Shown here one piece after another: positions 26,675 through 62,971 of a stretch of DNA of 64,000 nt (position 1 is its first letter; the number at the start of each line of letters is the position of its first letter). The position numbers and the translations under genes are program-made. The notes under the pieces were generated by a model. That model was not told the DNA's origin. It searched no databases and saw only the letters and a program-made list of their open reading frames with translations. Origin of the DNA: Candidatus Omnitrophota bacterium (GTDB lineage: Bacteria; Omnitrophota; Gorgyraeia; Tantalellales; Tantalellaceae); assembly GCA_015231405.1 (NCBI GenBank), contig JADGBR010000014.1, forward strand, positions 3,555-67,554, read 5' to 3'.

Positions 26675-26703
26675 TATAATTTACTCCCGTTTTGTATTAA
26701 TGT

Positions 26704-27045: not shown

Positions 27046-27247
27046 AGGTTAACATACAAGTTAACCTTATGCAACTTTCTTATGTGCGTTATTGGTGCGT
27101 TATTGGGGTCAGACCTCATCTTTACACAAAATATTTTAGCATAGTTTATGATGAAAATAATTTGAAACATTTTTTATGGTTTTGGTGTCTCTATAGGTAT
27201 GGGTTGAAAGCATACCTGATCAGCATTTATAACCAAGGAGGGTTTTC

Positions 27248-28198: not shown

Positions 28199-28424
28199 CC
28201 CCATTACGGACCCCATTACGACCCATCATTTTTACTCTATCAACTCCAAAAAAAATACTTATCACTCTTTATTATCCTAACAGAATAGGCAAAAAATTTT
28301 TGTTGCTTACTGCTTCAGATGTTTTTGATTCATTTTTGTCTTTCTACTCCTTTGCAATTATTCATCTAGTGCAAAAATGAGGTTTGACCCTCTTACTTCT
28401 ACAGCAGCGTCATGTGCAACTGTT

Positions 28425-28886
28425 CTATAGTCCTTTCAACATTTCTTCGCTTCTCTTTCTTGTGTACTCAACCAGCTTTTCTCTATTCGCAAAATAGTCT
28501 GAAGCTTTAAAAAGACTTAGTATTTTGGGGAAATACTTTGTTGCCAATACGGAATAATTTTCCAACTGCTTACGTTGTCTTTCTCCATAATCCTCAATTC
28601 CTTCATCAAACTCACATCTTTTCAAATCATTTTTATCAATACCCAAATATTCAAATAATAGTTTTAACCCAAATGTACTTGATTTCATCTGAATCGAACT
28701 AATTCCTATTAATATTTCACCTCTATCGGTATTAATATTTACATATATGTTATTATTTTTATAAAGAGTGCAGGAATTCCCAAAATTTTCTTTATCGACT
28801 GCATAAGACACAAATTCAAAATTGTATTTTTTAAATATATCAGAAAAATATTTGTTAATTTCATCTTTTAAAATAAAATCTGACAT
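28425..28886 (-). CDS. Putative immunity protein for the adjacent polymorphic-toxin C-terminal tip
   Basis: 153-aa cytoplasmic ORF beginning 15 bp after the stop of the giant toxin gene, on the same strand. It lies in the same AT-rich segment as the toxin tip. No recognised family. Confidence 0.55.
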   Translation of the reverse strand: MSDFILKDEINKYFSDIFKKYNFEFVSYAVDKENFGNSCTLYKNNNIYVNINTDRGEILIGISSIQMKSSTFGLKLLFEYLGIDKNDLKRCEFDEGIEDYGERQRKQLENYSVLATKYFPKILSLFKASDYFANREKLVEYTRKRSEEMLKGL

Positions 28887-28900
28887 AAATTCCCCTTTTG

Positions 28901-40900: not shown

Positions 40901-43405
40901 CGCGGCGCGTTTCTCCTTCTCAACTCTCCCCATTCCCTGGCCGAGCCAGTTCTCGTTCAGGTAGCGGTAATAGATATTACCGGAAGCGTCCGGCAAGGCG
41001 AGGGCCATGGATTCGCGGTAATTGGCCGCGTCGTCGTAATAAGTATTCGTGAGTTTAAACTGTGTCATAGCGGTGTCCGCGTAGTCCTCCAGCTTGATCA
41101 TCCTCGACGGCGCTAAGGACGAATAATAAAACCTGGTCGCTATACACCCCGAGGTATCCGGGGCTGATCTTATGACAATATCCAAAGAACTCGCGGAATT
41201 ATTAAGATAGTGGTAATACACATACCCTCTTGTGTCAGCCGGGATATATGTCCTTGACGCTATCCGGCTGGCTGTATCATCGTAATAAGCCGCCGTCTCC
41301 TTGAGCATGGTCATCGCGGCATCCAAATAGAACTCCCGGCGTATGACCCTTGTCGGCGTCGTTCCCGAATAAAAGTATTTGTACGCCATATACCCGTCCG
41401 TATCCGCGGCCTGTCTCATGGCGTAATCGCACCGCGCATTGGCGTCGTTCATATAATGATAGAATACTGCCCCTCCTGCGTCCGGAGCGGCAAGGGCCAT
41501 TGATTCCCGGTAATTGGTGGCGTCATCGTAATAAGTGTTCGTAAGAGTAAGCTGCGTCATCGCGGCGTCCGCGTAGCTCTCCAGTTTTATCATCCTTGAG
41601 GGCGTGACGGACGAAAAATGATATTTCGTGGCTATGCATCCCGAGCTATCCGAAGCCGATCTTTTGGCAATATCCAGTGAACTCGCGGAATTATTAAGAT
41701 AGTGGTAATACAAATACCCTCTTGTGTCAGCGGAAGTATAGCTCCTTGATTCGATCCGGTTGGCCGTATCATCGTAATAGTTCGCTGTCTGCTTGAGTTG
41801 GGTTAACGCGGTGTCCGAATAGAACTCCAGGCGTATGACCCTTGCCGGAGTCGCAGCGGAATAAAAGTATTTGTACGCCATGTAACCGTCTATATCCGCA
41901 GACTGGCGCTTTGTCATATCCACTCTCCCGTACCCTTCGGAGTTCCAGTTCTCATTTATATAGTGATAATAAATATTCCCGGAGGCATCAGGCGACACTA
42001 AAGTTTTTGACTCCATCCAGTTACTGGCGTCGTTATAATAAGTCACCGCGGAAACGCTATCGGCTATCGAGCTGACTCGCCCCGCCGTGTCGTTGAAATA
42101 GATATATGTCCTTAGTAATCCCGTCCCTGCGGCACCTCTATAGGCCTTTATCGACTCTACTCGCCCGGCCGTATCGCCATAATAAGTGTATATATACGAT
42201 AGCGCGCCGTTCGCGGTCGCGGTCAGCCGTTGAGCCTTGTCTACCCTGCCGCCGCCTTGAGAATTCCAGTTCTCGTTCATCAAATGGTAATAAATGTACC
42301 CGGACGTATCAGGAGAAACAGATGTGATGAACTCGGTATATCCTGTAACGTCGTTATAATAGGTATATGTCCTTATCAGTGTCGTCCACGAGGTGTTAAT
42401 GTATGCCATCCTCGTCTTGAGCCTACCGGTGGCATCGGCATAATACGTGTAAGAATACGACAGTTCACCGTTATCGGCTGTGGAACGTTTCGCCTTGTCG
42501 ACCCTGCCAAAACCCTGTCCCAGCCAGTTCTCGTTGATATAGTGGTAATAAATATTCCCGTAAATGTCGGCAGCGGCCGACGTCTTGGATTCCACATAGC
42601 TCCCGGCATTATTGTAATACGTGTAAGTGGCGACCAGCGATCTCCAGCCCGCGTCCGAGTACGACTTTACCGTCGAGAGATACGCGGTCGAGGCGCTATA
42701 ATAGGTATATGTGTACGATAGTTCCCCGTTAATGCCCGTACGCCGGATACCTTTATCGAGCCTGTTCATTGTGTTGTTCGCGAAATGGCAGTAGTATAGC
42801 CCTGTCAAAGGGTCGAACTGGCTCCCGATGTATATTTTTGTGTCCTTCCGGTTATATGAATTGTTATAGTACGCGGTGTCGGCAAGCGCGTTCGTCCAGT
42901 TCTTATCGGTATACGATCTTTTTGTCTTGAGGCGGCCGCTCGCGTCGCTGAAGTATATATAGGTATCGGAAAGCTCGCCGTCAGGTGCCGCCGTATCCCT
43001 GTAAGATTTATCTACCCTGCCATACCCTCGATAGAGCCAGTTCTCATCCAAGAAATGGTAATATAAGTTGCCGTCAGTATCGGAGGCCGCAAGAAGTATG
43101 GATTGAACACGGCCGCTCGAGTAATAGGTTTTCGTTCCGGGAAGGTCCGTAAGTTTCTGCGTCTGGGGACTCTTCGGCACGGAAAAACTTTCGATAGCCT
43201 TTTTGGAATCCACCGCTGACTGTGCGGCGGACTCACTTGCCGTGATATTGTCCGTTGTAACCGACGGCGCAAGCTGATTTCCTGAGCCGGTGGGCACACC
43301 GTATGGATCTATCGCCGCCCATGCGACCTCGTGGAAAAAAAAGATCCCGGCAACTATCGCCGAGATCATCTTCAGTATCATTTCTTTTCTCTGCAAGGAA
43401 AACAT
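28901..43405 (-). CDS. Giant (4834 aa) Sec-signal RHS/YD-repeat polymorphic toxin with teneurin-like domain content and an unclassified C-terminal toxin tip
   Basis: Signal peptide MFSLQRKEMILKMISAIVAGIFFFHEVAWAA. About 14 long YYHY.NENW...GRVDK...YTYY repeats (about 38.3-43.1 kb). Dense RHS/YD repeats (YDAKKRVISHTDPYGNTVNYVYNSDGSL, YEYDKNADG, FSYDSDGAMIS; about 35.1-38.3 kb). Three discoidin/F5-8C-like domains (about 32.8-35.0 kb). Two DUF4214-like units (about 32.0-32.5 kb). A Gly/Ala/Met-rich hydrophobic module (about 30.4-31.2 kb). A PT-TG-like motif WAGVVPGVGDTIDAINGLIYLSRGKRDEA (about 29.29-29.41 kb). An AT-rich roughly 130-aa C-terminal tip (28904..29290). Confidence 0.9.
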   Translation of the reverse strand: MFSLQRKEMILKMISAIVAGIFFFHEVAWAAIDPYGVPTGSGNQLAPSVTTDNITASESAAQSAVDSKKAIESFSVPKSPQTQKLTDLPGTKTYYSSGRVQSILLAASDTDGNLYYHFLDENWLYRGYGRVDKSYRDTAAPDGELSDTYIYFSDASGRLKTKRSYTDKNWTNALADTAYYNNSYNRKDTKIYIGSQFDPLTGLYYCHFANNTMNRLDKGIRRTGINGELSYTYTYYSASTAYLSTVKSYSDAGWRSLVATYTYYNNAGSYVESKTSAAADIYGNIYYHYINENWLGQGFGRVDKAKRSTADNGELSYSYTYYADATGRLKTRMAYINTSWTTLIRTYTYYNDVTGYTEFITSVSPDTSGYIYYHLMNENWNSQGGGRVDKAQRLTATANGALSYIYTYYGDTAGRVESIKAYRGAAGTGLLRTYIYFNDTAGRVSSIADSVSAVTYYNDASNWMESKTLVSPDASGNIYYHYINENWNSEGYGRVDMTKRQSADIDGYMAYKYFYSAATPARVIRLEFYSDTALTQLKQTANYYDDTANRIESRSYTSADTRGYLYYHYLNNSASSLDIAKRSASDSSGCIATKYHFSSVTPSRMIKLESYADAAMTQLTLTNTYYDDATNYRESMALAAPDAGGAVFYHYMNDANARCDYAMRQAADTDGYMAYKYFYSGTTPTRVIRREFYLDAAMTMLKETAAYYDDTASRIASRTYIPADTRGYVYYHYLNNSASSLDIVIRSAPDTSGCIATRFYYSSLAPSRMIKLEDYADTAMTQFKLTNTYYDDAANYRESMALALPDASGNIYYRYLNENWLGQGMGRVEKEKRAAARGGELSSQYTYNADTFGRVLTKQVYSDGDCTVLVKTYSYYNDMDGRIQSVSDAASGTIETYYNDAATYLTQKTMSDGSYVIYSYHDGTDKVSLEKLYLRNGKLYSDTEYNASGKMSGYTDYSLGRVCEFDLYGNIVSDTVSNRLQGLYEYTYDNGAMISSVYLDAVSGVVTVTDHYNEALGLVKSYRYAPGAIVDGGISYLLEDLSSPYITASYTTEEDIIVGTEHVTGPGAVEYYVISRYNKNGQVVSRTGKLLSGEADNAETVAGSTAAYTYDSNGDILSELGPGAEEPFVYEYDKNADGAVMEKRFLDIKKSRMTLERYDSSGRLTESFNVPSHYLDGPTGPVIVRDGSPETPIITCAYSTSTLPGGFIAEKRVKDKDASGNDVDFTEITEYDAKKRVISHTDPYGNTVNYVYNSDGSLSSESDTYSGSEVTTLITYAYSTSGNVDEIIKTTNVYATGADKSAGNPVKAVIEHDRITRDEYLRVTKEIKYTEIAGSEDPITFYETLYAIDGNVTEENERTASGPGSVTSYKYNGRGGVSEIDYPSGKKDAYLYVRDNIGRLRSETVITSEADIVGSVYTTSVTTVFDPATGDTLSYTDSSGNVTAYSYSRDAKGGLLSEKETVTGSNGTFLGSKETIYDKDGREISITVNKGMADEERTDFSYDSDGAMISRAITRLDAGGKEEVTSESYGADGLLAMVTEPSGVMTEYSYLKDKTGAITLKTVTEKTKTVDGTKTVTVKKYDAKGYLVYDEDTEKGLIKEMVPSYENQGTPLEYLREERSILTQRAEGAPPVMITTSKKFNDRGQLIEIGDGARPGMGYSYYGADSSSGHIGDLAAQIDPAGIRIDYTYTYDTTGGHIISKKSVYSEKDSTGVYRVNYALDHGYDILGRVTLETDKYGVKRTYTYEPLDVEPSTVTTETVSYTDKDGNAVSSTVVMKYSPDGKTLIETDRPDGTVTYYDHTGADPLVLTGERILRPGGGGGILLKEVTYRYDDTTGRIKESIATDTRGTDNVSDDIVKVTSYDISNTGKNIKETSVYAPGVYSPDGKAQVREIYHYKTSGALDRVETMGLSGTTYKTDIESFYAVYNGKVLVKTRTTGEGREDFNYDGDGNLTDSVFTSGLYSARTEKRYAANGDVINVTMKGMDGDTVTDITYVRNAIGNITGKTETVRYRPYNLAGGNTDTILAVKSYTYYGSEDSDKAIYPEATASGAVKTMTSGGKTYSYEYTYDAEGVLTITKETVSWDEGASRYTAVSLKKSDTKGDIIASIDTEGVYSEYEYSTDAENAMGGKVQTEKSYYGLIDAKDPSKGYTRYRRSSFDGSLPEGLSESRTVRVYDFDNDLVSLTEANDPANVSDDIVTRYTYVKDELGRVKAGYETVNGRAGVKVSEYDEKGDLVSETDRNGMKVTYSYERDGVLGYIKKTVAGNVLYPGFSQTTGYDTRGDVISVTGSNGIRKTYTFIRDASGKITARKEDTTSSAALSGSGILMNYTETSEYDANGDITGFTDKNGIKRTTRYIYDRYGNEAKTITEVIFVSGTSGKITVTDYNPDGTESRVTEMNDPASSEDDITRTYSYKYDQITGVLSEKTETDIRYSGVTVYRYDNSGDVTIVVSPNGVTLSYAVKKDDKGGTIERYTKTSLSPDAVEKEEFDTEGNRISLTDANGHIATYLNTYDGKSDLIKATEYRTGPSGLYTSVVNEYDSFGRIKLSVDKNGTPSAYEYSVTPWGAVTSSREYDPRGTVGGGYDGSVLRVFDAVTSDLISMTDRLGLTTVYEYGRSPEHGGITLKTERAPLGGTTVYGMDKYGRIISVTDTYDKTVTVSLEFDTCGNMTKRLLSWQETIDGQGVQDYVEEEYYSIEGDLVKRVDRLKNVYTYIAEKNGKGDLARLVTVDHGRNNDKMDISSVDYDASGRIISRTTPRGDVTYYAYQFGSGGEVKKIYESVAPTGEKIDALKPVEIKNISVRNCYFGVDPWQLVDDKYDNWQNFGWEYSMPTDRTSIILDLTGNGSDQDNVSALGLSFRSPYNYPYTVYYATNEAPDNWIKIKTTDLNTDNDWFIDSFGTPVAARYIRIENANEKYWTTAMQLNEVKVYRTEKVSGTVRVSDLDKYGRAVSEKNALMLLWEERPDLKKLFINPNSQCQLNNYFSGKDVSEWARFTGALEDPRIAGYISDYANRNSPLIKEYFEKGSKGHMVTSVTPVSASWSDNVSYLTDYSVTAGSASIRWDNDTVLPYFRLDLGGLTDIGKFRIKFRDDGNSYKYRIFTSEDGVNWEGATDRTDMLYSGWVEDLISPRKARFVKLEAVYGAASDGKVNRQMNVDELMILDTASDTYPPNGYATDTMLAWAKGSGSRLYADLAKYADNTYPDKDRPSGTMISYENTDSSGIPRSRYEISTYTGAAAKLYDPKGVLTEELLVNESSAVVTPIVYPGSASSLEKVYGAGGDILAERNILGRLWEETVEARDLFLVPGYTYNGMTFKTWVASKGQGYFSLLGNKGSSDINALDDPYIARYAYTRDDTGFVASVSKIVNYVQETYSVYKKPVPGENPLNDMILLDGTKHTSTGGVNPSLDYDGYDTTAYSSESFSPDADVTSTHEFAQPVTLSEIYYNTRVSADSGGRGESYDMNVQYLQAGSSVWVDVARTSGCRAFDVCFSGTWHGTLANVTAIRVRATARAWNGDNNNAYAEIFELSARGPADTGQPVVVQREFKALDATRKKYSYTYHPNGNLAGMDVDVSGKDTKDYYMRYDALGNITLYNEDGRNYSYEYTRDRWNNIEKVKVDGSDTVFMNNGKSWDEEAVVSRVKDYFAAMLYRAPASDELTFCVSEWRKTGYTNFVRDYIKNLTEYKNGPKDTGGQTLALERAARLSGMLTCYNVALSAGAVLTAALSAGISLIKEGYNNAVSAYTAAKGRNDKKYISEIYREELGREATDEELTETLAHMRSNNLTLESEREHIRNASDPASEYAKRRAEITVIINSLYTETEAGTSTGILADYLAASDKPAYLKERGYDIDPSLLVNITKEDIQIIITRLKTQDNHFGQSAAEALYASLQANEAALVIARSEATKQSLSIMNYLLQQLIFVDLITGAITSETQGQLLLTMYALKKVSQKHGLDVYGSKYTFDDFIRQASSLQGADAPSLRGAEGDEAIPIIVHYNGTHFLTVTGVIRDTTGTITHIKVTNSYINNIEQTKQIPLTEFKKNYEGTTLSTARSDYKNRLTDTQLLDIKAAGWWDKLWKKVTQIFEGIVKAVKKIVTNIIQPVVQMINAIKYAAQEGKWGRVAGAIGALVVGSVMSVISGGTLAYPIMNTVTNMATAICYGQYGQAMTIMGMGVASIFLSAATAFVAAPIAGMAGQMMEGIWTGLSAVGRTLGQITLGITDNLISIGQKAIGGVMTLCRQAAEGFQSAGNWLKNTLNPWISTEFAPKALLGDAVRNYLGGMITSGISNYAMEQISKSDNWLSKLGIGLAAAITLMPVNAFANPAFDMKILNSTAMFATEVFFNTASQVISTETMNALENKYGEQWYSNMLQMTVSSVIGAGLDGTRQYMQNEIAIREIHYENINAELNKLRDKYQGAVESEKTLSDGTKQITLIDINTGNKAVFTYNATTMNIVETDAGKITKTEITKGINSYTSTKVECLDNGNTRVTSEDGTVTLYDANYQILEITESELSYDAGQFIDYTTVYDPNTGKIVDLKVDGDNYAFSEMFGSSWDSMMDATGRVSLIESAKLAISKGVEVKINDKVILTEDGMIAEINRLAGEDYELTINGVSVKPEDVFNNSYESAESILTSEGYLSPANYKIGYVSFNAGGINEAIFDSSFDVMQSYLDWAGVVPGVGDTIDAINGLIYLSRGKRDEAALSLLAVGTVVPLNAIKAAGNGLKSYRNIGKDITVLGSNYGIWINSGKYKYIEVAKRINANYFCIPDKIWKKFVKIMNEDELWEMNRKFLDRAMLKTRAFYVTTPYALAGKYLRKEIDYLLSKEYKIVMREGKNYFWLIK
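31441..31510. repeat. Short repeat element copy 1, in-frame inside the giant toxin ORF
   Basis: ttattgggattgcttcgtcgccttcggctcctcgcaatgacggggcgtcggctccttgcaatgacgagg. It shares gattgcttcgtcgc(c)ttcg(g)ctcctcgcaatgacg with 31691..31725 and 52269..52300. Confidence 0.65.
31681..31795. repeat. Short repeat element copy 2 (longest copy, about 110 bp), in-frame inside the giant toxin ORF
   Basis: ttattgacagagattgcttcgtcgcttcgctcctcgcaatgacgagggcggcttcgttggcttgcaatgacgcgtataacgcctcggcggcgctttggccgaagtggtt. Its halves match the intergenic copies at 52266..52302 and 24185..24240 respectively. Confidence 0.65.
41040..42000. repeat. Intragenic tandem duplication of about 480 bp x2 within the N-terminal repeat domain of the giant toxin gene
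   Basis: 41040..41520 and 41520..42000 align along their length. They share identical stretches such as actcgcggaattattaagatagtggtaataca and ggcaagggccat.gattc.cggtaattgg. Confidence 0.7.
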
Positions 43406-43640: not shown

Positions 43641-43674
43641 AAAAAAAAGCCCCGTCGGGTGACGGGGCTTTTTT
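43641..43674 (-). terminator. Rho-independent terminator (bidirectional) after the 2850-aa gene
   Basis: AAAAAAAA-GCCCCGTC-gggt-GACGGGGC-TTTTTT, 20 bp downstream of the stop at 43695. Confidence 0.7.
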
Positions 43675-43694: not shown

Positions 43695-46600
43695 CTACAC
43701 CGGCTGCTCGACCGTTGTTCCGGCTCCGGCTCCCTGGAATTGGCCTTCGCCGTAAGTGCCCGCGGCGGTTCCCTGTATCTCGTTACCCTGGAACTGGCCG
43801 GTTACACCCGCGGACCACTGGTTATCGGCCCACTGTAAACCTGTAAGGTTGACATTATAGTTCTCCGACTGGAACGCCGCTCCCCAGGTGCTCGTATCCG
43901 TCACGCCCTGATCATATGTGCCGTTTATGATCGCCGCCCATATGTTGGTCGCGTCGAACGAATACAAGTTCATGTCCATTGTAGCCGTCTGTATCTGGCC
44001 GTATACGGAAGTCGCCTGCATGGCCTCGGTTATCGGTATCATCACGTCGTTGAAATTGTTGATAATATCCTGCATCTCCGTCACGATATTGGCAAGGTCG
44101 AGAAGCTCTTCGGCTTCCACCCATTCGCCGGCTACCGCTCCGCCAAACTGGGCGCTGATCTCAGCTCCGTCTTCGGCCTCGATATATTCGCCCTTCGTCG
44201 CCAGGACAGCGTCGCCTTTAATGCTCCCGAATCCCTCAGGTGATACCCAGAGACCGGTAAATTTCCCGTCCATGTGGCCTTTAACCGCCCAGCTGTCACC
44301 CGAAAGAGTGGCAAGATATGTGACATAATCCCCTATTTCTCCCGTCATCGGCATTTTCCACGCCGAAAGGTCTCCCTGGTATTCTCCTTCGATATTCGCC
44401 CCCCATATGCCCCAATTCGCACCGGAAAGGGATAATACAGGTCCGCCTTCGGTAAATTCCCCGGCCATATTATCGTTATAACCATACCCATGTATCCAAT
44501 CCGTTTCAACCATGTCATAAAGGTCTTCAGGCATTATGCTGCCGGCATAGGGCATTTCCCTGTAAATATCCACGGCTCCGTTTAGCTCCAGCATATCGAT
44601 GGATTGGTATGTCGTCCCGAGGAATTTCCCACCTATATATCCTACCTTGCTCTCTCCCGTTCCCTGGTCGGGCGGAGTGACAAAGAACGCTCTCATGAGA
44701 CTAGCGGCAGTACCACCCATAACGTAACCTCCCATAAGGCCGTAATAAGCGCCGCCGTCATAAGTCGTATAAGATTCCTCGTCATAATTCTCGCTGGTAA
44801 GGCCCGTACCCCAAACGAAAATACTGTTAGGATCGACCTCTCCGAGTTCATATTCGCCGATAAATAAAGCCGGGGTCGTTGCCCCGCCCCACAGGCTCTC
44901 CGTGCCGCCGAATATACCCCTTATACCGCCGCAGGCGTATCCTTCATTTGAAAGTTCGGTTTCCACCGAACTCGCGAAAGAAAGATGTTCATCCTCGTAT
45001 ACTCCCAGCACCGAAGCTATGAAGGTACCGGACTCGACTGTTGGATCGGAGGTATTCTCCCCAAAAAGGTCACCCTCGATGGTCGTAAGGTCCGTCATCG
45101 ATAACCCTTTACCCGTAAGCTTTCCGAATATCAGGTTATCGGCTTCCGGACCGTTGTATTCCCATCCGCCGTTAAGCCACCTTATCTGGTAGTAGTTGTC
45201 GATGGCATCGCCCGAAACAGCCTGCCAGGTAGTTTCCCCGGCCGGCCTATTCTCATAATAATTGGAGTCCCCGAACTTCATCTCGAAAGCGCCCCATTTC
45301 CTCCCATCGATGGAATAACTGTACCCTTCGGAAAGATTAGCTCTGATATAGCTGTCATTGCCGCTGCCGAACGACCCCACAAAAGTCATAGGGTCGATGT
45401 TCTCCTCCTGGATCATTCCGCTTAGATCCGCCGGGTCTATCCCTGAATCTTCTTCCATTACGGTAGCCGCTATCGTCCCCTCGAGTATCCACATACCCAG
45501 TTCCGTGTAGTACTCGCCGGCGAGAAGCCCGCCGTTCGCCCTCATTTGAGCGATATCGCTCAAAAACGAGCCGGATAACAAGGAACCGTTATAGTTCCTC
45601 AAATACCCTATTTTCCCGTTCGGATCGGCGTATAGAGCCAAAAACCCTCCGGTCATCTTGCCGTCCATCAGAACCCCCGCCGATACGCCTTTAAAAGCGC
45701 CGCCGTCAAAAGTGACATACTCATCGTCAACTACGTTATAGCTTTCCACGGGAGTGTGCCAGAGATAAGCGCCATTCTCATCCCCCTCGACGTAAAAGTC
45801 TCCCATAGCGCGGATAGTCGCCGGGGCGTTCCACGGGCTGGATGTGCCTCCTATAAGGCCCGTATCTTCACCCTCCCATCTGTAATAACCCGCGTCATTG
45901 GAGTATATGCTGCACTCGTTCTCCCCCCACACTCCGCTGAACCAAAGGCGCTCCCCTTCCCAGGAGCCCGCTCCGCCGGCCTGGAAAACTGTAGATCCCT
46001 CATAGTTGAAACAGTTGCCTATTCCCACGCCGGATATATCTCCCATTTTCGTCCCGGTAAGGAACTTACCCGCGGCCGTAAAACTGAGATCGCCGTTGGA
46101 GAGAATGCCGTCCTCTGTTTCCATTATCCAGTAACCGTGATCCTGGCTATAATCATACCCCATATTCCCGCCCATCCATTGCGACTGAGCTGTTTCTGTT
46201 CCCGGAGCCGGAGGAGTACCGAGGATATCTTCCAGAGAATCGACTCCCGGGGTCCATGTGCCCGTGATAGTTTCATATGAACCTTCTTCGTTCTGGAAAT
46301 ATTTTTCCCATGTCCCGTCGGCCTTATAGCTGAGCTGATAATATTCACTTCCATTCTGGCGGTAATACCTGGCATACCCCTGGGTGTTATCCAGCGAATA
46401 GGAATAAAAATAGTCGCCGTCATATCCGTAGTATCCCCCGTTCCAGTCGTAGTAATAGTACTGCCCGTCATGTTCCGTAGTCGTAAGGTAAGCGCCTATC
46501 GGGTCATTGCCGCCAAGAACCGCCGAAAATCCGGAGTTCTCCCCCTGCTGATAGATATATCCCCATATTTTCTGGTCGTATATACCCCAGTCGTAGGTCT

Positions 46601-49600
46601 TGCCCTCGTCCCAATTTATGAGCGACGACGTATAAAAGTTATCGCTGCCCTCTATGGACCCTTCTTCGCCGATATGCCCAAAAAGGGATCCTTCACCCTG
46701 TTCCGTATTGTATATGTACTCGCTGATATCCGATGCCGGGATGTCGGTATACTCCGCTTTCTCTCTTGCGTCCGTCATACCTGTCATTTTCCACATCTCG
46801 AGGCCCGGATATGCCTCTCCTTCGAGATAGCTTGAAAGAACGCCGGCCTTATGGTCCGGAGATATGTATATCGCGGATAAATATCCGTTAAGCCGGGTAC
46901 CTTTCCAGGATCCCACGGTCGTCCCGTAAAAAGCGCCGCCGTCAAGTGTGCTGTCATCGTCGGCTAAAACGTTATAGCTCGACACCGGCGTATGCCATAT
47001 GCTCTCTACAGGTTCTTCGTCGTTGAAGTAATACTCACCCATGGCCGTGATCTCAGTGCTGGCTGTCCAGGGAGAAAGTATTGTTCCAATAAGTCCCGAA
47101 TCCTCTCCTACCTGTTCCATATAACCATAATCGGAATTATAGCGGTATAGGCTGCTTATGTCTTGCCCTCTTCTCTCATTTGCTCCCCATGTTCCGCTTA
47201 GTTTAAGCTGATCCCCTACCCATACTCCGAGACCCACTCCCTGCCAAAGCCCGGTCGAGTCGAAAGCCTGGCCCCAGATATCACCCACCATATGCGACAA
47301 TCTCGTATAACCGAGGAAATAGCCGTCTAGAGTCGCGTTCAACGCTCCTTCCACATTAGTTCCGTCGATAGGAGCTATCCAGTATCCCCGGTCGCCTTGT
47401 AAACTTTCGTAGCTTGAATTACTGGTATATACTGTGATCGCGCCCTCGACCTCGATATTCTCCGCTATTACATCCGCAAGCGATCTGGATGTATCCCAAT
47501 TGCCGGACAAATAATTCCCGTTGCTATAATCATAACCGGAATATGTCCCATCGCCGTCATAACTCAGGTAATACTCACGATATCCAAGGTCACTATAGGT
47601 GTACACATACTGATACCCTGAGTTGTTATTCGAGTCGTAATTGTAGTTAAAACTACCTGAATTATAGCCTTCCGACGAGGCGAAATAACCGCTAGCCTCA
47701 AAATGTTCGTACGCGCTGGCTACGCCTATACTGTCGTATCCGCCCATAACGGCCGAGAAAGCGGTATCCCCGTTCGGATTTGAGAAGTTTCCCCATAAAG
47801 TCTGGCTGTATATGCCCCAATCCGCTGAAACCCCGGTTTTCGTATTGACAAGCGAAAATTCCTGAAAATTATCCTGGCCGGTAATGCATCCTCCGGTCTC
47901 GAAACCTCCGTCAAGATACCCGGCGTCATTGTTGCCATAGTGGTAAAGATTTTCCGGCGCCACGGTGTTCTCGGCGTCCATTACTTCAGGCGTCAAAGTT
48001 CCGTCAGCCTTCCACATGTTTATCTCATCGAGAACGGTACCCGACATATCGCCCTTTAAAATACCGGCTTTACCGGAAGGGTCGATATAGACAAGAAGCG
48101 TTTTCCCCTCCAAGGCCAGGCCGTCTACAAGTCCGGCCGACCATCCGTAGAAAGCTCCGCCGTCGGGAGTCGTGTTGTTACCCAGATTCGCGTTATAGCT
48201 CAGTATCGGTGAAAGGAAAATATACGGGTCCGTCGAGATCTTATTGTCGCCGGATAATTCCCCCATCGCCCGATAGGACTCTGTGGAATCCCAGGGAGAG
48301 ACCGCCGCGCCTATGATCCCGTATTCGTGCGTTACCCACCTGAGCTCTCCGTTGTCGTTATAGTAGACGCTGTCATTGTCAGAACCCCATCTCCCCGCGA
48401 AAGTCAGATCTTCACGGGCCTGCCATACCCCGGTGCCGACGCCCATCCAGCTCGACCCCTCGGTATCGTATATGCCGAACACGTCTCCGGACATCGTCCC
48501 GTGCCAGAGGTATGTCAGTATCTCTCCGTCAAGCTTGCCGGAATATTCGCCGTTAGCGTAGGAGCCGTTGTTTATATCGGCTATCCAGTAACCATAGTTC
48601 ATATCGCCTTCGCCGCGTTTACTTTCATCCGTCAGGACGGCGTTGTCCGCGTCAGGGGGCGTCGAGACTATCTCCTCAAGCGTTTTTGTCGTATCCCATG
48701 TCCCTACGAGCTCCCTTCCCGCGTTGTAATCATATCCCTCATAATGCCCGTCTTTGTAATAGGTGATGTAGTAACTCTCGCTATCGCCTCCGTCGTAGTA
48801 GTCCCCGTTATCCCTGTAATAATTCACGCTGGCAGAATGGTTGTCCGTGTAATAAGAGACCTGGTAATAACCGGTACTGTCGCCGTTCTCGTCACGATAT
48901 TCATAGCCCTTTTCTACGTACAGATACGGATCGATCGTCCCAAAAGGATCGGTCCCGCCCCCTATCACCGCCGAAAAACTTCCTTCGTTATCCGGGTTGT
49001 TATATGTCCCGGCCATCCTCTGGTAATATATACCCCAATCCTGCGATACCCCCGCATTGAAATTGACTATATTCATGGTCTCAAGATTCTCGTCCCCGGT
49101 AATACTGCCTGTCCCTTCGCCGAAACTTCCGGATATCGCCGCTCCTCCCTGCCCGGTTTGCGCGGAAAGATACAGGTCTTCCGGATCTACGCCCAGATCA
49201 CCGGAAGCAACCATCTGGGTGGGAGTTATTGTCCCTCCTGCCGTCGCGAAACCGGTTTCAGGATAAGTTTTACCGGAAAGGTGTCCTTTAAGATATCCAC
49301 CGTTACCGCTCGGGTCTATGTACAGCCCTATAAAATATCCTTCCAACGCGCCGGCTTCAGTACCAAGGATACGTCCTACATAAGCTCCACCGTCATAAGT
49401 GGTGTAGGTGTCATCATTATAATTATAGCTAAAAAGGTCCGATCCCCAGACATGCCCGTAGCTATTATCCCCGCACGAATATTCCATCAAGAGATACGCC
49501 ATCGCGCCGTCTCCCCACATAGACCCAGTCCCTCCCAAAAGACCGTTTAGATTCCCTGAATAGTCCCAGTTGACGTAACTGTTCTCATACTCGACGGAAT

Positions 49601-52247
49601 ATCCATATGGCGCAAAACCCTCGTACGGAGACTTAGATATTTCCTCCAGAGACATTTCGGTATCCCACGTTCCATACCTACTCCCATAGTAATACGAGTA
49701 CCCATCTGTAGAGGCGTTCCCATAGTAATTATCGTACTCGTAATGATACGGGTCCGAGCGATACCAGTATCTTTGCGCGTAGCTGTCATCTCCCCTATAC
49801 GAGTACTGGTAGTACTCGTAGCCGGAAATACCCCAGTACCTTCCATCTGTTTGGGTATAACCGCGTTGTATCGATCCTTCCAGCGGGCTCACGAATTTGA
49901 GCGCTTCCTCGCTCCATGTTCCGGCGCCGACGCCCTCGTAAGAGTAGTAGCCTTCTTCCTCCGAATACTTCCCGACTATGGTCCCCAAAGATCCGCCGAG
50001 ATTGAAATGATCGATATAGGTCGTCATAACATCCAGTTTAAGATAGCCCTCCAAATTGTCCTGGCCTTCAATGGTAGTGAGAGAATAAGTTTCATTTTCG
50101 GTGTTCACGTCGCCATCCCCGCCGTCGCTCACGAGCGCGCTCAATGTCTCCGTGCTGCCGCCATCGCCTCGCTGATCGCCGGAAAAGCCTACCCACTCAG
50201 TGGCGTTATCCAGGCGGTCATATTCCCCGCCGTAGATGCCTTCCCATATGCCCCAGCTCTCGCCGGTTATATTTGTCCCATTCTCGGTACCATCGAGCCA
50301 AAGCGCGGTGCCGTCGTCATTCGTATCGAACCCTAAAAAGGTATCAATGGTCGTTATGGGCTCGAGCGCAGCGTTAAGCCCGGCCGGAGTTATATCCGTG
50401 TAAACGGTAGGCACAAAGAACATATCCCCGATAGCCGAAAAGGTGCCAAGCTCATTATCCATAGTTCCCTCAAGATACCCTATCATAGTCCCGGCGACGC
50501 CCGACGGATCGATATATATAGCCGATATCATGTTCGCTATATTGCTTTCCCCGTGAGAAGCTCCCACCGCCCAGCCTTTGAAAGCGCCGGTATCGTCGCC
50601 CGTTCCTGATATATCGCCGAACATAAGGTCTCTCCCGTTCGGATTCGTGAAAGTCCCGTCGAAAGTGACGGGCGAATAAGTACCGCCTGTGCCTGTCGAC
50701 GCTGTTCCTTCCCAGGGCGCGACCGTCGCGGTAGTCTGCACCGCACCTTCGAACGCGCTCGCCTCGTCAACCCCAAAAGAGCCTCTGTAACCCATTTTCG
50801 CCTCGACCTCACCGGTCACCTGCACAACGGGAGCCTCCTCTTCCTCGACCGGAAGCTCCGGCGTAAAAGGTATGAATATGCCTATGTCGCCTACATTGTT
50901 CTCTCCTTCGCTCGCGTCATTCCCTCCGGTATCCGGAAGGCCCGCGGGATCGCCCTGGCCGCCGGTATTGTCAGCCGGTCCGGCCTCGCCGCCGGGGATA
51001 CCTTCTCCGTCCGGATCTCCTTCGGAATAACCGTATACACCGTCGCCCTCGTTGCCGAATTCGCTGCCGAGGCCGCTCCTATCTTCGTCCGTCGTAGGGT
51101 TCATCTCAAGTTTTCCGTCCAACCCCACGGTCGTCGTCAACCCCTGGTCGACCACCTTCTCGGTGCCGTCTATGAGATTTCTTACAAACCCGCTGCCGCC
51201 CTCGAAAAAAGACCTTGTCATGGTGGGCAGAACGTTCAGATACATTATTGTTCCCCTTATGCCGCATGCCGCGTGCGGTGTCTTTACCGTGAATACCGAA
51301 CCCTCGGGCTTATTCTGGAGTTTGGAGATGATACTGCCGTATTTCGCCTCGAACTCGTTCCTGTAGTTGCCCGAAAGAGGGTCTTTGGAAAGCGTGACGA
51401 TGATGATCTGCGTATCGGGCTTAAGCTCCATGGTAAGGCCGTTGTCGAAGCTGAGGAGTATGCTCCCGTTCTTTCCGGTCTCGATGGTGTCGCCGGGTTT
51501 CAGAGCTTCGTTGTTTTCCGGAGTATGCCATTTTTCGGAGCCGGCGGGTTTTACCCTGACGGCGCCGGCTATCCGGCTGACCATGGCTTTAGTAAAAAGG
51601 GAGTTCGCTTCGGTCACGTTATAAACGGCGCTTGTCACCTTCTGGAACTTATCGAATTCTTCCTGCTGATACGCCCTCGGGGTCGCCGGCGGGGCGTTAT
51701 ATGGCACCATCGTCGTCATTCCCTCTTCCACGTTTATCCGACTGGTCGGGAACTCGGGGTTCAGCATATGGAACGTTCCTTCCGACACCAGAACATTGGT
51801 CGCCGATTGCTGGAAGGATACGAAAATATCCGACCCTTTCACCGTTCCGGCGGCGTTCGGCGTAATAACGTCGAACGGGGCCGAATCCAATGTCTTGGAT
51901 ACCACGGCGCGCATATTACCTCTATCGAGGCCTATCGCGGACATAAGACGCTCGCCGTTGTCTTTAAGCCTGTAATCGTTCACCTTTATCTGCGAACTTT
52001 CACCGACATGTACGACGGAGTTATCGTTGAAGGTGACCACGGCTTTGGACGAGCTCTTCGTCCGGAGCGACTCGCCCACGGATACCGTCTCTCCTATGGC
52101 GGCCGGGAAATAATCTCCGTCCGTCAATTTTTTGTCTACTCGCCCTTCGATGTAAGTAACCTTACCCACAGTGTCCGCCAGTAATGCCGGCGGAAAAGCC
52201 AGCGTGAAAGACAGTATGACCGCCATAAAATTGAATATCTTCTTCAT
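43695..52247 (-). CDS. Giant (2850 aa) secreted protein with N-terminal tandem FecR-like domains, then about seven copies of an approximately 240-aa Gly/Tyr/Trp/Asp-rich repeat
   Basis: Signal peptide MKKIFNFMAVILSFTLAFPPALLA. FecR-like beta modules (VTFNDNSVVHVGESSQIKV...; second copy ILLSFDNGLTMELKPDTQIII). Repeats recurring as DPSGKAGILKGD...SADWGIYSQ...GNWDTS..LWQGVGLGVW...GLIG. GGAGG RBS before the ATG. Confidence 0.85.
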   Translation of the reverse strand: MKKIFNFMAVILSFTLAFPPALLADTVGKVTYIEGRVDKKLTDGDYFPAAIGETVSVGESLRTKSSSKAVVTFNDNSVVHVGESSQIKVNDYRLKDNGERLMSAIGLDRGNMRAVVSKTLDSAPFDVITPNAAGTVKGSDIFVSFQQSATNVLVSEGTFHMLNPEFPTSRINVEEGMTTMVPYNAPPATPRAYQQEEFDKFQKVTSAVYNVTEANSLFTKAMVSRIAGAVRVKPAGSEKWHTPENNEALKPGDTIETGKNGSILLSFDNGLTMELKPDTQIIIVTLSKDPLSGNYRNEFEAKYGSIISKLQNKPEGSVFTVKTPHAACGIRGTIMYLNVLPTMTRSFFEGGSGFVRNLIDGTEKVVDQGLTTTVGLDGKLEMNPTTDEDRSGLGSEFGNEGDGVYGYSEGDPDGEGIPGGEAGPADNTGGQGDPAGLPDTGGNDASEGENNVGDIGIFIPFTPELPVEEEEAPVVQVTGEVEAKMGYRGSFGVDEASAFEGAVQTTATVAPWEGTASTGTGGTYSPVTFDGTFTNPNGRDLMFGDISGTGDDTGAFKGWAVGASHGESNIANMISAIYIDPSGVAGTMIGYLEGTMDNELGTFSAIGDMFFVPTVYTDITPAGLNAALEPITTIDTFLGFDTNDDGTALWLDGTENGTNITGESWGIWEGIYGGEYDRLDNATEWVGFSGDQRGDGGSTETLSALVSDGGDGDVNTENETYSLTTIEGQDNLEGYLKLDVMTTYIDHFNLGGSLGTIVGKYSEEEGYYSYEGVGAGTWSEEALKFVSPLEGSIQRGYTQTDGRYWGISGYEYYQYSYRGDDSYAQRYWYRSDPYHYEYDNYYGNASTDGYSYYYGSRYGTWDTEMSLEEISKSPYEGFAPYGYSVEYENSYVNWDYSGNLNGLLGGTGSMWGDGAMAYLLMEYSCGDNSYGHVWGSDLFSYNYNDDTYTTYDGGAYVGRILGTEAGALEGYFIGLYIDPSGNGGYLKGHLSGKTYPETGFATAGGTITPTQMVASGDLGVDPEDLYLSAQTGQGGAAISGSFGEGTGSITGDENLETMNIVNFNAGVSQDWGIYYQRMAGTYNNPDNEGSFSAVIGGGTDPFGTIDPYLYVEKGYEYRDENGDSTGYYQVSYYTDNHSASVNYYRDNGDYYDGGDSESYYITYYKDGHYEGYDYNAGRELVGTWDTTKTLEEIVSTPPDADNAVLTDESKRGEGDMNYGYWIADINNGSYANGEYSGKLDGEILTYLWHGTMSGDVFGIYDTEGSSWMGVGTGVWQAREDLTFAGRWGSDNDSVYYNDNGELRWVTHEYGIIGAAVSPWDSTESYRAMGELSGDNKISTDPYIFLSPILSYNANLGNNTTPDGGAFYGWSAGLVDGLALEGKTLLVYIDPSGKAGILKGDMSGTVLDEINMWKADGTLTPEVMDAENTVAPENLYHYGNNDAGYLDGGFETGGCITGQDNFQEFSLVNTKTGVSADWGIYSQTLWGNFSNPNGDTAFSAVMGGYDSIGVASAYEHFEASGYFASSEGYNSGSFNYNYDSNNNSGYQYVYTYSDLGYREYYLSYDGDGTYSGYDYSNGNYLSGNWDTSRSLADVIAENIEVEGAITVYTSNSSYESLQGDRGYWIAPIDGTNVEGALNATLDGYFLGYTRLSHMVGDIWGQAFDSTGLWQGVGLGVWVGDQLKLSGTWGANERRGQDISSLYRYNSDYGYMEQVGEDSGLIGTILSPWTASTEITAMGEYYFNDEEPVESIWHTPVSSYNVLADDDSTLDGGAFYGTTVGSWKGTRLNGYLSAIYISPDHKAGVLSSYLEGEAYPGLEMWKMTGMTDAREKAEYTDIPASDISEYIYNTEQGEGSLFGHIGEEGSIEGSDNFYTSSLINWDEGKTYDWGIYDQKIWGYIYQQGENSGFSAVLGGNDPIGAYLTTTEHDGQYYYYDWNGGYYGYDGDYFYSYSLDNTQGYARYYRQNGSEYYQLSYKADGTWEKYFQNEEGSYETITGTWTPGVDSLEDILGTPPAPGTETAQSQWMGGNMGYDYSQDHGYWIMETEDGILSNGDLSFTAAGKFLTGTKMGDISGVGIGNCFNYEGSTVFQAGGAGSWEGERLWFSGVWGENECSIYSNDAGYYRWEGEDTGLIGGTSSPWNAPATIRAMGDFYVEGDENGAYLWHTPVESYNVVDDEYVTFDGGAFKGVSAGVLMDGKMTGGFLALYADPNGKIGYLRNYNGSLLSGSFLSDIAQMRANGGLLAGEYYTELGMWILEGTIAATVMEEDSGIDPADLSGMIQEENIDPMTFVGSFGSGNDSYIRANLSEGYSYSIDGRKWGAFEMKFGDSNYYENRPAGETTWQAVSGDAIDNYYQIRWLNGGWEYNGPEADNLIFGKLTGKGLSMTDLTTIEGDLFGENTSDPTVESGTFIASVLGVYEDEHLSFASSVETELSNEGYACGGIRGIFGGTESLWGGATTPALFIGEYELGEVDPNSIFVWGTGLTSENYDEESYTTYDGGAYYGLMGGYVMGGTAASLMRAFFVTPPDQGTGESKVGYIGGKFLGTTYQSIDMLELNGAVDIYREMPYAGSIMPEDLYDMVETDWIHGYGYNDNMAGEFTEGGPVLSLSGANWGIWGANIEGEYQGDLSAWKMPMTGEIGDYVTYLATLSGDSWAVKGHMDGKFTGLWVSPEGFGSIKGDAVLATKGEYIEAEDGAEISAQFGGAVAGEWVEAEELLDLANIVTEMQDIINNFNDVMIPITEAMQATSVYGQIQTATMDMNLYSFDATNIWAAIINGTYDQGVTDTSTWGAAFQSENYNVNLTGLQWADNQWSAGVTGQFQGNEIQGTAAGTYGEGQFQGAGAGTTVEQPV

Positions 52248-52311: not shown

Positions 52312-53838
52312 TCAATATTTAAACTGTACCCCGGCGCCTACTATGTGCCTCGAGTACTCGTAAACGCTCAGGTTCGATCTCTCGTTAATAAAGGTGTACC
52401 TTATCTGTAATTCGAAGTTTTCCAGGAGTTCGTACATCAGCATAGTCCCGGCGGTATAAGTCTGGTCAAACCGCTTTTTATCATAGATCGTATGCTTGTT
52501 CTCGTAATTCTGGAAATAGACGTCCCCGTTCAAGGTAAGCTTCAGCTTATCGCAGACAGGGTACAATATTATCGAGCCTATTTTATTACCTATATAATCC
52601 CAGTTCTCGCCTCTGGCGAAGTCATCGTCAAAAGTGTAGCGCAGGTTCAGGAATCCCTGATTTTCCTTGAAGAACCAGTACATGCCCCCCAGCGCCGTGA
52701 CCCTATTCGAGTCGCGGTTCTCCGCCTCTATCTGGACAGGCCTTAAATAATCGTTGTTGGCGTATATTACCCCGACCTGGGCCATCTTGGTCTTATCCAG
52801 CATTATGCTGTTAATATTCCCGGCGCTTATCGAGGACAGGTAATTCTTATCGTCGACTATAGTATGGCTATAATTCACCGGCACCGTTAGAAGCATCTTA
52901 TCGAGGGAAAGGCCTCCCTGCAGGGACACGTTGTTGCCGATGGTGTCGTATTTACCCAGGTCGTTCTGCTTGGATACCCTTATACCGTAGCCGGGCTTCA
53001 GACTAAGGTTCCCCTCCTCGTTCTTGAAAGTATAGTCTCCCTGGGCGTCGTAGACTTCTCTGGTATCCGATTCGTCCGTAACGCTTGTGATCGAGGTGGA
53101 ATCAGAAGGTTTTAGAAGGACATTCGAATCGTATTCGAAAGCGGTCCTAGCGGTGAAGTGAAAAGGCTGATCCTTAGTGACCTTCCGGTCCATCGCGTCG
53201 AGATATTTATCGGCGTATGTTCCGAGCTCGGAATTCGGGTCTAGCTCCATGACTTCCCTGAAAATATCCTTGGCTTCTTTAAAATCCTTGTTCTTCAGAT
53301 GGCATACCCCGATCTGGTATTTCGCGGACTGCTTGAGACGGTCGTCCAATTCAGCGGCTTCCTCGAACGCTTTTATGGCTTCGGCGTATTCTTCAGTCTT
53401 CTGTAGAGTGAGACCCTTCAGGAACTTCGCCTGCGCCGGCCTTATGCCTTCCTCTTCGGCTACGGCGATCCATTTTTTCGCGGCGTCATAGTCCTGTAAA
53501 CGGTAAAGCAGATCGACAAGCTCGATAAGCGCGCCTTTTATTTTCGGGGTAAGCTCGAGAGATCTCTCGAGGTATTTCCGCGCGTTCACGTAATCTTCCA
53601 TCCTTTTGTAGGTAAGACCCGTGTAGTAAGTTCCAAGCGACGAAGCCGGATCGTTCTTGATCACTTCGGTAAAAACCTTAAGCGCTTCTTCGTAGCTTTC
53701 CTGTCTGAAGTGGTATATACCTTTATTCAGCACCTCGTTCCCTGTCGTCTCGTCCGACTCCTCTGCCATTGCGCGCGAGATCGAAAACGACAAAAACAAC
53801 CCGCATAAAATAAAAGCCCCGAAAAATATTTTCCTCAT
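52312..53838 (-). CDS. Outer-membrane protein: N-terminal TPR repeats plus a C-terminal beta-barrel
   Basis: Signal peptide. About 220 aa of TPR helices (YYTGLTYKRMEDYVNARKYLERSLEL, AKFLKGLTLQKTEEYAEAIKAFEEAAEL). Then about 280 aa of alternating-polarity beta strands ending in an aromatic C-terminus (VGAGVQFKY). Confidence 0.7.
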   Translation of the reverse strand: MRKIFFGAFILCGLFLSFSISRAMAEESDETTGNEVLNKGIYHFRQESYEEALKVFTEVIKNDPASSLGTYYTGLTYKRMEDYVNARKYLERSLELTPKIKGALIELVDLLYRLQDYDAAKKWIAVAEEEGIRPAQAKFLKGLTLQKTEEYAEAIKAFEEAAELDDRLKQSAKYQIGVCHLKNKDFKEAKDIFREVMELDPNSELGTYADKYLDAMDRKVTKDQPFHFTARTAFEYDSNVLLKPSDSTSITSVTDESDTREVYDAQGDYTFKNEEGNLSLKPGYGIRVSKQNDLGKYDTIGNNVSLQGGLSLDKMLLTVPVNYSHTIVDDKNYLSSISAGNINSIMLDKTKMAQVGVIYANNDYLRPVQIEAENRDSNRVTALGGMYWFFKENQGFLNLRYTFDDDFARGENWDYIGNKIGSIILYPVCDKLKLTLNGDVYFQNYENKHTIYDKKRFDQTYTAGTMLMYELLENFELQIRYTFINERSNLSVYEYSRHIVGAGVQFKY

Positions 53839-54070
53839 TCATCGCTCCTTAATTATTGTGATTTTTGACAGGAGAAAAACAATTAAAGGATTTATAAATG
53901 TTTGTAATTTGTTCTTGTGTATGAAGCGCGGTATCTCTACCGCCGGAAGACACGAAGACAGAAAAACTGTTACAAAAGATTTTTCCCAACCCTTATTTCC
54001 TGTGATTATATCGGAAGGCTTTCTAAACTTTTACAATTTTACGACAAGTACGGCGTTTTGTCAAGCAGTT

Positions 54071-62846: not shown

Positions 62847-62971
62847 GCCTTCCTCCTTCTCTTTTTCTAATATTCTCACTCTGAAAGAAACGCTAGTCAA
62901 TGAAAATCAGAAGGATATAGATCATTATACGGAAAACGGGTTTTTTGCGCTCCAAGGTGTCACCTAAATCA

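Follow-up and report, generated by a model that had tools for sequence, protein, structure and literature searches.

The window analysed here is a stretch of 64,000 nucleotides (nt) from a Candidatus Omnitrophota bacterium (contig JADGBR010000014.1, positions 3,555 to 67,554). On its minus strand it carries two neighbouring genes, one for a 508-residue outer-membrane protein made of tetratricopeptide repeats (TPR) and a beta-barrel, which we call the partner, and, directly downstream, one for a 2850-residue protein with a FecR-type head, a series of long repeats and a conserved tail, which we call the fibre protein. Our confidence that the two genes are a conserved functional unit is high, and we would put the chances at about even that this unit is a two-gene outer-membrane display system whose cargo half, the fibre protein, forms an adhesive or spacer fibre anchored at the cell surface. 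The two genes and the signals around them are as follows.

43695..52247, minus strand: gene of the fibre protein, 2850 residues, with FecR head, repeat fibre and conserved tail (list of open reading frames (ORFs) and translation; ATG start)
52312..53838, minus strand: partner gene, 508-residue outer-membrane protein (Pfam TPR families, AlphaFold2)
43643..43674, minus strand: intrinsic terminator of the TPR-barrel/FecR operon (AAAAAAGCCCCGTC-ACCC-GACGGGGC, then T8)
54036..54064, minus strand: promoter-like site TTGACA-17-TAAAAT, 11/12, between the PPDK-like and TPR-barrel genes (consensus scan)

The fibre gene is, as the first-pass annotation had it, a single ORF of 2850 residues; it lies on the minus strand and has an ATG start, and its product is identical to a protein from a metagenome-assembled genome (MAG) named at NCBI 'FecR domain-containing protein [Candidatus Omnitrophica bacterium]'. 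It follows the partner gene after a gap of 64 nt, with a GGAGG-type ribosome-binding site. The terminator that separates it from the next gene, which codes for an RHS-repeat protein, is unambiguous: GC-rich (GCCCCGTC-ACCC-GACGGGGC plus T8), with a stem of 14 pairs in the terminator scan, it stands about 20 nt past the fibre stop codon and before the RHS gene. A promoter-like site was also found between the terminator and the RHS gene; such sites are consensus patterns only, and their number in the region is not above that in shuffled sequence.

The pairing is widespread. TPR-barrel relatives that are 41–56% identical to the partner precede every contig-placed relative of the fibre protein for which upstream DNA is present. 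The partner itself has at least 135 full-length relatives, mostly in Omnitrophota, and behind each of three that lie on long contigs comes a gene for a FecR-head protein (696, 1041 and 1683 residues). A scan of one genome per GTDB species gave at least 406 confirmed partner matches. Omnitrophota supply most of the best 80, the others being from Desulfobacterota, Nitrospirota/Thermodesulfovibrionia and a few other labels. Seventy-three loci from these species-representative genomes were informative, i.e. their sequence continued for 800 nt or more beyond the TPR-barrel gene; an ORF matching the profile of the family's heads was found within 600 nt downstream in 65, and slightly offset in five more. 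The pairing also holds in all the metagenome loci examined, and the link to the upstream TPR/beta-barrel protein that had been suggested from the window alone is thus borne out.

Most contig-placed fibre relatives then carry three more genes, hereafter the trio, which code for a PpiD/SurA-like chaperone (SurA_N and Rotamase_2), a HAMP membrane protein of about 189 residues and a protein of about 165 residues that belongs to no family. The trio is present in about half of the 73 loci; related loci that have it are, for example, L005 (15101-16985), L009 (14666-16542), L010 (15086-16969) and many of L012-L091, and in relatives it sits where the window has the RHS gene. One genome (L013 10001-13000) has the trio immediately after the TPR-barrel gene, the FecR-fibre gene being absent from between them. 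Two TPR-barrel/FecR pairs were seen on different contigs of one MAG in three instances (L012 and L059, L014 and L017, L025 and L058), so that one genome can carry paralogous copies of the cassette. In the window (61017-62900, minus strand) and in a related locus (L005 5625-6830), the pair has an AsmA/DUF748-family gene a few kb upstream; this nearness may be a coincidence or a loose linkage with envelope-biogenesis genes.

In the partner, Pfam finds TPR repeats and a weak C-terminal barrel signature. The AlphaFold2 model, built from 115 homologues and with a predicted local distance difference test score (pLDDT) of 93.6, consists of a signal helix, TPR helices at residues 31-222 (a domain of about 190 residues with some 5-6 repeats) and a 14-stranded barrel at residues 226-507; the protein ends in ...FKY, a terminal aromatic residue being typical of outer-membrane barrels. 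With Foldseek against the PDB, the whole partner matched BcsC (E 1.7e-12) and PelBC best, while the barrel alone brought up the 14-stranded CymA and OmpG first; no Slam structure was among the matches. A Pfam scan of the barrel by itself gave two borderline results, BBP2_2 (23.6 bits for a cut-off of 23.7) and DUF2860, and there were weak matches of the partner to the PEP-CTERM-associated EpsL and PrsT models.

These matches bring up the possibility that the TPR-barrel protein exports exopolysaccharide as do the BcsC/PelB/PgaA porins, with which it shares a periplasmic TPR domain on a barrel, and that the FecR protein assists it from the periplasm or after secretion, e.g. as a polysaccharide-binding scaffold or matrix protein, without itself being exported by the pore. 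BcsC and PelBC are indeed the best matches for the whole architecture, the BBP2_2, EpsL and PrsT matches go in the same direction, and polysaccharide or exosortase genes occur within 10 kb of the cassette in several relatives. However, the template-modelling score (TM) with BcsC is 0.34–0.41, and the known pores have 16 strands (18 in AlgE) and much longer TPR arrays than the partner, with its 14 strands and about 190 residues of TPR. Moreover, the invariant neighbour of the barrel gene is the FecR-fibre gene and not a synthase, there is no synthase adjacent to the partner, and no glycosyltransferase gene adjoins the pair in the window. Membership of the BcsC/PelB/PgaA group was therefore rejected, and we regard the porin explanation as unlikely. 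The polysaccharide genes seen near the cassette are GT2/GH8/PilZ genes (L001 1-2267), a PMT gene (L004 6439-8184) and Polysacc_synt and Wzz/Poly_export genes (L005 6831-8057 and 21955-24288); exosortase EpsH/EpsI genes with PEP-CTERM proteins were noted in L009 (1-5144), and a PEP-CTERM S8 peptidase gene lies inside the cassette of L010 (13611-15086).

Returning to the display system and to its presumed cargo, the fibre protein can be divided as follows, from the N- to the C-terminus.

52176..52247, minus strand: signal peptide, residues 1-24 (read from the translation; probable cleavage between ALLA and D)
51609..52169, minus strand: FecR-type head module 1, residues ~27-213 (Pfam stretch 61-158, head profile)
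51111..51581, minus strand: FecR-type head module 2, residues ~223-379 (second Pfam stretch; head profile domain 2, i-E 3e-8)
50838..51092, minus strand: acidic low-complexity linker rich in Gly/Pro/Asp/Glu, residues ~386-470 (composition)
49545..50837, minus strand: unit r0, residues 471-901, divergent, carrying a Tyr-rich patch of its own (partial matches of the unit profile at 549-609 and 714-786; alignment)
48321..49544, minus strand: unit r1, residues 902-1309, canonical, 408 residues (self-BLAST)
48633..48950, minus strand: example of a Tyr-rich insert, residues ~1100-1205 (8-15 Tyr per 50 residues)
47100..48320, minus strand: unit r2, residues 1310-1716, canonical, 407 residues (self-comparison, unit profile, alignment)
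45861..47099, minus strand: unit r3, residues 1717-2129, canonical, 413 residues (self-comparison, unit profile, alignment)
44919..45860, minus strand: unit r4, residues 2130-2443, shortened, with little of the Tyr-rich insert left (unit profile, alignment)
43698..44918, minus strand: terminal unit r5, residues 2444-2850, module A and conserved C-terminal domain (AlphaFold2 model)
43704..44525, minus strand: conserved C-terminal domain, residues ~2575-2848 (conservation, profile search)

The N-terminus (MKKIFNFMAVILSFTLAFPPALLA, followed by D after the cleavage site) has a positive n-region, a hydrophobic core and an A-x-A-like site, with no lipobox Cys, and thus looks like a Sec signal peptide on reading of the translation. 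The signal peptide named in the first-pass annotation stands on that reading, and a composition count confirms the richness in Gly, Tyr, Trp, Asp and Ser that had been pointed out (G 14.6%, S 7.9%, Y 7.5%, D 7.2%, W 2.4%). Past its linker the protein is strongly acidic and Gly/Tyr/Trp-rich, and FecR was the sole family reported for the whole protein by Pfam at E<=0.01. The description of the fibre protein as a Sec-dependent FecR-domain repeat protein is therefore supported.

Two FecR modules had been announced, and both are there: PF04773 matches with an E-value of 2.1e-20 in two stretches, the best being 61-158, and the family head profile sets the modules at residues 1-213 and 223-379. The linker that follows contains 21 G, 12 E, 10 D and 8 P in 85 residues and is free of K and R at residues 401-450. 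The same order is found in relatives. The best 150 matches of a profile of the C-terminal domain, described below, include 91 full-length proteins with the FecR head N-terminal, two head modules being present in 76 and one in 15. A G/P-rich segment comes after the head across these 91 proteins, its richest window of 40 residues having a median of 37.5% G+P against 17.7% overall, and the charge is split, with a roughly neutral head and a net charge of about -9 to -11.5 per 100 residues in the remainder.

As to what the heads resemble, several models gave matches. The NCBIfam model retention_LapA (NF033682) scores 34 bits with the full fibre protein and 25 bits with the head alone, for a cut-off of 50; it matched 15 of 23 family heads at E<=1e-3, every one of them below the cut-off. 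The family head profile also matched PDB 5ix9, the N-terminal domain of MpIBP, with an E-value of 0.0022. The NCBIfam models of Lsa33 and LipL45 from Leptospira, surface adhesins or lipoproteins that share the FecR domain, matched all 23 heads with E-values down to 1e-22, at 38–93 bits and thus far under the cut-offs of 350–420; unlike the fibre protein, they are lipoproteins of 300–400 residues without its repeat units or tail. Finally, 8 of the 23 heads weakly matched the FecR regulator model. Identity as a FecR anti-sigma regulator was rejected, since the protein has nothing of such a regulator but the FecR domain and begins with a cleavable signal peptide; genes for sigma-70_r2/r4 or a TonB-dependent receptor were not found among the neighbours in the window.

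A related idea is that of a trans-envelope sensor, in which the FecR-type head would signal to the HAMP and ~165-residue proteins, much as FecR does with FecA, and the long extracellular part would serve as a contact sensor. The FecR homology is clear and extends to those weak matches to the regulator model; the HAMP gene and the conserved gene for the family-less protein follow in about half of the loci; and sigma-54/response-regulator genes are nearby in some. But where FecR regulators have a cytoplasmic anti-sigma domain and a transmembrane helix, the fibre protein has a cleavable signal peptide, both the window and its closest relative keep the pair without the HAMP and ~165-residue genes, and the variable number of units, each of 300–410 residues, points to a structural fibre. 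A sensor seems to us decidedly unlikely.

The structural fibre that the display reading calls for would be made of longer units than had been thought. About seven copies of some 240 residues had been described, but chunked queries (a self-BLAST with the whole protein gave only the identity match) revealed offsets of 408, 407 and 413 residues, which rule out a period of 240, and a hidden Markov model (HMM) built on the protein's own copies, from which the boundaries were taken, agrees with a unit of about 410 residues in some six copies. Three of them are canonical (r1-r3) and three divergent, namely the first, a shortened one and the terminal one. Residues 902-1097 of r1 and 1310-1503 of r2 are 41% identical (E 1e-31), and in r4 positions 1-106 of the unit HMM match residues 2130-2239, followed by weak matches. 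The motifs that had been singled out (SADWGIYSQ, GNWDTS, LWQGVGLGVW) do occur, once per unit.

A canonical unit comprises a module A of about 200 residues, a Tyr-rich insert of about 100 (unit HMM positions ~205-310) and a module C of about 100. Besides the insert listed, further ones are found at residues ~795-870, 1505-1610 and 1905-2025, i.e. they recur every 400 residues or so. In most relatives the units are insert-free and about 300 residues long, the insert being present in the fibre protein and a few close relatives. The recurring pattern of the inserts, ...Y.Y..DG.Y.GYDY..G...G.WDT.., resembles YD/RHS-type hairpins by eye; the RHS_repeat/YD profile did not match them in the Pfam scan of the whole protein (E<=0.01). 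At the protein level the unit copies are 30–41% identical, and there is no DNA-level repeat in the gene beyond two short stretches of 73% identity, one with a spacing of 1236 nt. This indicates old duplications and not an assembly artefact.

The first-pass annotation saw no recognisable anchor. This holds for the known anchor types, but it overlooked a conserved domain of about 275 residues at the C-terminus, with the motifs W.AA.AGEWVEV, MD..LY and G.AAGTY..G.F.G.GAG.W, which is kept in nine of nine first-round relatives, including one with PKD/HYR/Y_Y_Y passenger domains. An exhaustive search with the profile of this domain against 1.84 billion cluster representatives (clusters at 50% identity) gave 460 proteins at E<=1e-3, of which 390 remain at E<=1e-10. 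The domain runs to the extreme C-terminus in nearly all the full-length matches listed. P0180, of 2614 residues, is an exception: the domain lies mid-protein (1076-1354), which could be due to a gene fusion or a missed stop codon.

Structure prediction for one unit, a check put forward in the first-pass annotation, was carried out on residues 2430-2850 with 27 aligned units. AlphaFold2 returned an all-beta model (mean pLDDT 83.8, predicted TM 0.72) with, in order, seven strands, a short helix, nine strands (several of 14–18 residues), a long helix and eight strands. Compared with the PDB and BFVD, it gave only non-specific up-and-down beta matches with TM ~0.1, the best in the PDB being TbpB/LbpB, LptD and porins (E ~1e-2, TM ~0.1), so that no fold match is significant. 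No Pfam family matched the unit or the tail at E<=10, and their profiles found nothing below E 0.3 among PDB sequences. According to these Pfam, PDB and fold searches, the repeat and the tail stand outside any known adhesin, S-layer or anchor family, as had been supposed, and autotransporter and S-layer identities were set aside.

It could still be argued that the protein forms an S-layer or coat of its own kind, or is a matrix protein that is wholly released, in which case the head would not be a stopper. It is very acidic, beta-rich and repetitive and has no known anchor, and unlipidated cargo of the type 11 secretion system (T11SS), to which we come below, can be released to the medium. Against this, the head and the linker are found in every member, which argues for a function after export, and the number of units varies widely, which would be unusual for a lattice-forming S-layer protein. 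We consider an S-layer or released matrix protein quite unlikely.

That variation becomes apparent when the family is considered as a whole. The 91 full-length relatives range from 735 to 3756 residues, with the window protein in fourth place by length. The smallest member examined, a protein of 696 residues at locus L010, has a signal peptide, one FecR module, a Lys/Gly/Pro-rich linker and a single terminal unit; taken together with the longer relatives, it defines the plan of the family as head, linker, n units and tail, n going from 1 to about 10 or more. In P0009 (1742 residues) the same head and tail enclose PKD/HYR/Y_Y_Y/Big-type passengers that replace most units, as expected if head and tail are export or anchor modules. 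FecR-head proteins of about 600 residues in which the conserved tail is absent follow TPR-barrel genes in L057, L062, L063, L070 and L073, with two such genes in tandem in L063; they may be a separate cargo subfamily.

Among known systems, the closest in layout is Slam/T11SS. There, a periplasmic TPR domain and a 14-stranded barrel are likewise combined in one outer-membrane protein, and the cargo (TbpB, fHbp, hemophilin), encoded next to it, depends on Sec and combines an N-terminal part that varies with a C-terminal beta-domain that is conserved; its C-terminal 8-stranded barrel directs it to the outer-membrane protein. The last domain of the fibre protein has eight strands in the model, the number found in T11SS targeting barrels. 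The differences are considerable, however. The partner barrel has no match to DUF560/SlipAM (PF04575) at E<=1, and by sequence the tail has none to the T11SS cargo domains TbpBBD and lipoprotein C. The cargo is 0.7–3.8 thousand residues long as compared with a few hundred, carries a FecR-type head and is not lipidated, and the hosts are Omnitrophota, Desulfobacterota and Nitrospirota instead of Proteobacteria. As to the relatives, a precomputed PF04575 match exists for 1 of 120, and a barrel-only Pfam scan of eight sequences put one near the threshold (21.8 bits for 22, nearly full-length); TPR_Slam matches the partner weakly, with 25.9 bits for a cut-off of 35.2. Because the barrel does not match DUF560, the pair cannot be counted as T11SS.

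The order of parts in the cargo recalls, on the other hand, adhesins of the LapA/MpIBP type, which also have an N-terminal beta-sandwich head (a similarity below threshold), a Gly-rich linker, a repeat array and a conserved C-terminus, and whose export starts at the C-terminus. Their head, which is too bulky for the pore, remains behind and retains the fibre while the linker lies in the pore, and the logic proposed for the fibre protein is the same. The fibre protein differs from them by its Sec signal peptide and by the TPR-barrel as the presumed pore. There was no RTX/haemolysin-type Pfam match in it, and genes for a type 1 secretion ABC transporter, membrane-fusion protein or TolC-like protein were not among the neighbours in the window or the related loci; LapG and LapD genes and the dialanine site were not found either, having been looked for only through Pfam scans of neighbours. 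Membership of the LapA type fails because the retention score is under its cut-off and type 1 secretion components are missing.

With two-partner secretion (FhaB/FhaC) the pair has in common a dedicated outer-membrane protein next to a giant, Sec-dependent, beta-rich fibre, and the lack of an ATPase. The transporters of that system, TpsB, have POTRA domains and a 16-stranded Omp85 barrel, and the targeting region of TpsA is N-terminal, whereas the fibre protein is conserved at both ends. No POTRA, ShlB, TPS-domain or haemagglutinin match was found in either protein, and the barrel has 14 strands, so this system was rejected as well. Literature searches brought up no description of a TPR-barrel/FecR-fibre pair; the proteins reported in a preprint on giant genes of Omnitrophota are different and much larger, with type II secretion-like neighbours. 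We would class the pair with a known kind of system, the dedicated single-component outer-membrane exporters whose cargo is encoded next to them; the cargo family is undescribed, and the repeat fold has no solved relative.

It is the combination of the Slam-like layout and the LapA-like order of cargo parts that leads to the pathway of export and tethering we propose. The cargo would pass the inner membrane via Sec and, in most relatives, be held export-competent by the PpiD/SurA-like chaperone of the cassette. Its conserved C-terminal beta-domain would dock on the TPR-barrel protein, which would act as dedicated translocon and anchor with the TPR domain in the periplasm, and the acidic beta-rich units, six in the present case, would be threaded to the surface and fold outside into a long fibre, the length of which would be set by their number. 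The neutral FecR-type head would remain on the periplasmic side and act as a stopper, the Gly/Pro-rich linker would lie inside the pore or at its mouth, and the fibre would serve in cell-surface attachment or spacing. The data show how the two proteins and their operon are built, that the pair is conserved, that the partner folds as a TPR domain on a barrel and that the unit is all-beta; surface exposure, export direction, head retention and adhesion we infer. For the specific topology of the cargo in the pore our confidence is moderate to low.

Several observations weigh against the display system so conceived. In addition to the missing DUF560 and T11SS cargo-domain matches, the resemblance of the tail to TbpB/LbpB is non-significant (E 7e-3, TM ~0.1), and the last eight strands of the terminal-unit model are a strand count, by which a closed barrel is not implied. 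The likeness between the head and retention modules, being below threshold, may reflect nothing else than the common FecR-like beta-sandwich. It is not evident what would supply the energy to pass some 2400 residues through a barrel of 14 strands. Lastly, the trio was not found in the window by tblastn or profile searches. A bolder version, in which pair and trio together are a distinct, undescribed export and anchoring system of non-proteobacterial diderms with C-to-N export of fibres several thousand residues long and the head as tether, appears possible to us, but with the chances clearly against it. Such a system would be a Sec-dependent counterpart of LapA retention and either distantly related to type 11 secretion or similar to it by convergence, and FecR-type domains would gain a role as periplasmic stoppers.

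It had also been proposed that the genes of the PPDK-like protein, the TPR-barrel protein, the FecR-repeat protein and the RHS protein form a block of four. The neighbours are as described, with the TPR-barrel protein upstream, the RHS-repeat protein downstream and all genes on the minus strand, but the block is not conserved. The features on the RHS side are the following.

28901..43405, minus strand: RHS-repeat and F5/8-type-C protein, 4834 residues, with its own signal-like N-terminus
28425-28886, minus strand: ORF of 153 residues without a family, after the RHS gene; it could be an immunity gene
27248-28198, plus strand: IS200-type transposase, beside the RHS gene

One might imagine a single module of fibre, RHS toxin and PPDK-like protein, for instance with the fibre as a delivery or targeting device for the toxin, and all these genes are indeed adjacent and on the same strand in the window. 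However, the terminator and a promoter-like site part the fibre gene from the RHS gene, a further promoter-like site stands between the PPDK-like and TPR-barrel genes, and relatives of the RHS or PPDK-like protein are present within 10 kb in none of 91 related loci. In addition, the G+C content of the RHS gene drops to about 35% in the last ~1 kb at its 3′ end, next to the IS200-type transposase and to toxin-antitoxin-like genes; a Gp49-like gene and a fragment of an ERCC4 nuclease gene are found there too. This fits a lineage-specific mobile insertion. The single module is very improbable, and a functional link of the fibre to the RHS toxin is essentially refuted. The region 24000-30000 looks like a polymorphic-toxin tip beside mobile DNA; a pattern search of the RHS region for the DPxGL core motif found none.

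Two PPDK_N proteins are encoded in the window, both on the minus strand. The gene of the first (2087 residues, 6910-13173), which has a phosphohistidine domain of the alpha-glucan-water-dikinase type, is separated from an alpha-amylase/CBM48 gene (14269-16401) by about 1.1 kb, in which there is an ORF of 153 residues; the second (1626 residues, 54071-58951) has a weak receiver domain. PPDK_N is among the domains of the giant proteins in the Omnitrophota preprint mentioned above.

If the display reading is true, the pair would represent a widespread route by which little-studied diderm phyla display very long surface fibres, given at least 406 partner matches in GTDB species-representative genomes and at least 460 tail clusters at 50% identity. 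Ultra-small cells that depend on a host have been proposed among Omnitrophota (Nat Microbiol 2023, PMC10066038), and attachment structures are central for cells of this kind. The design principle of Slam/T11SS would extend beyond Proteobacteria and to cargo ten times larger, and the FecR-type domains would be tied to the retention modules of type 1 adhesins. The predicted all-beta repeat would be a new fold with no solved relative. Since only two genes appear essential, the system is directly testable by co-expression.

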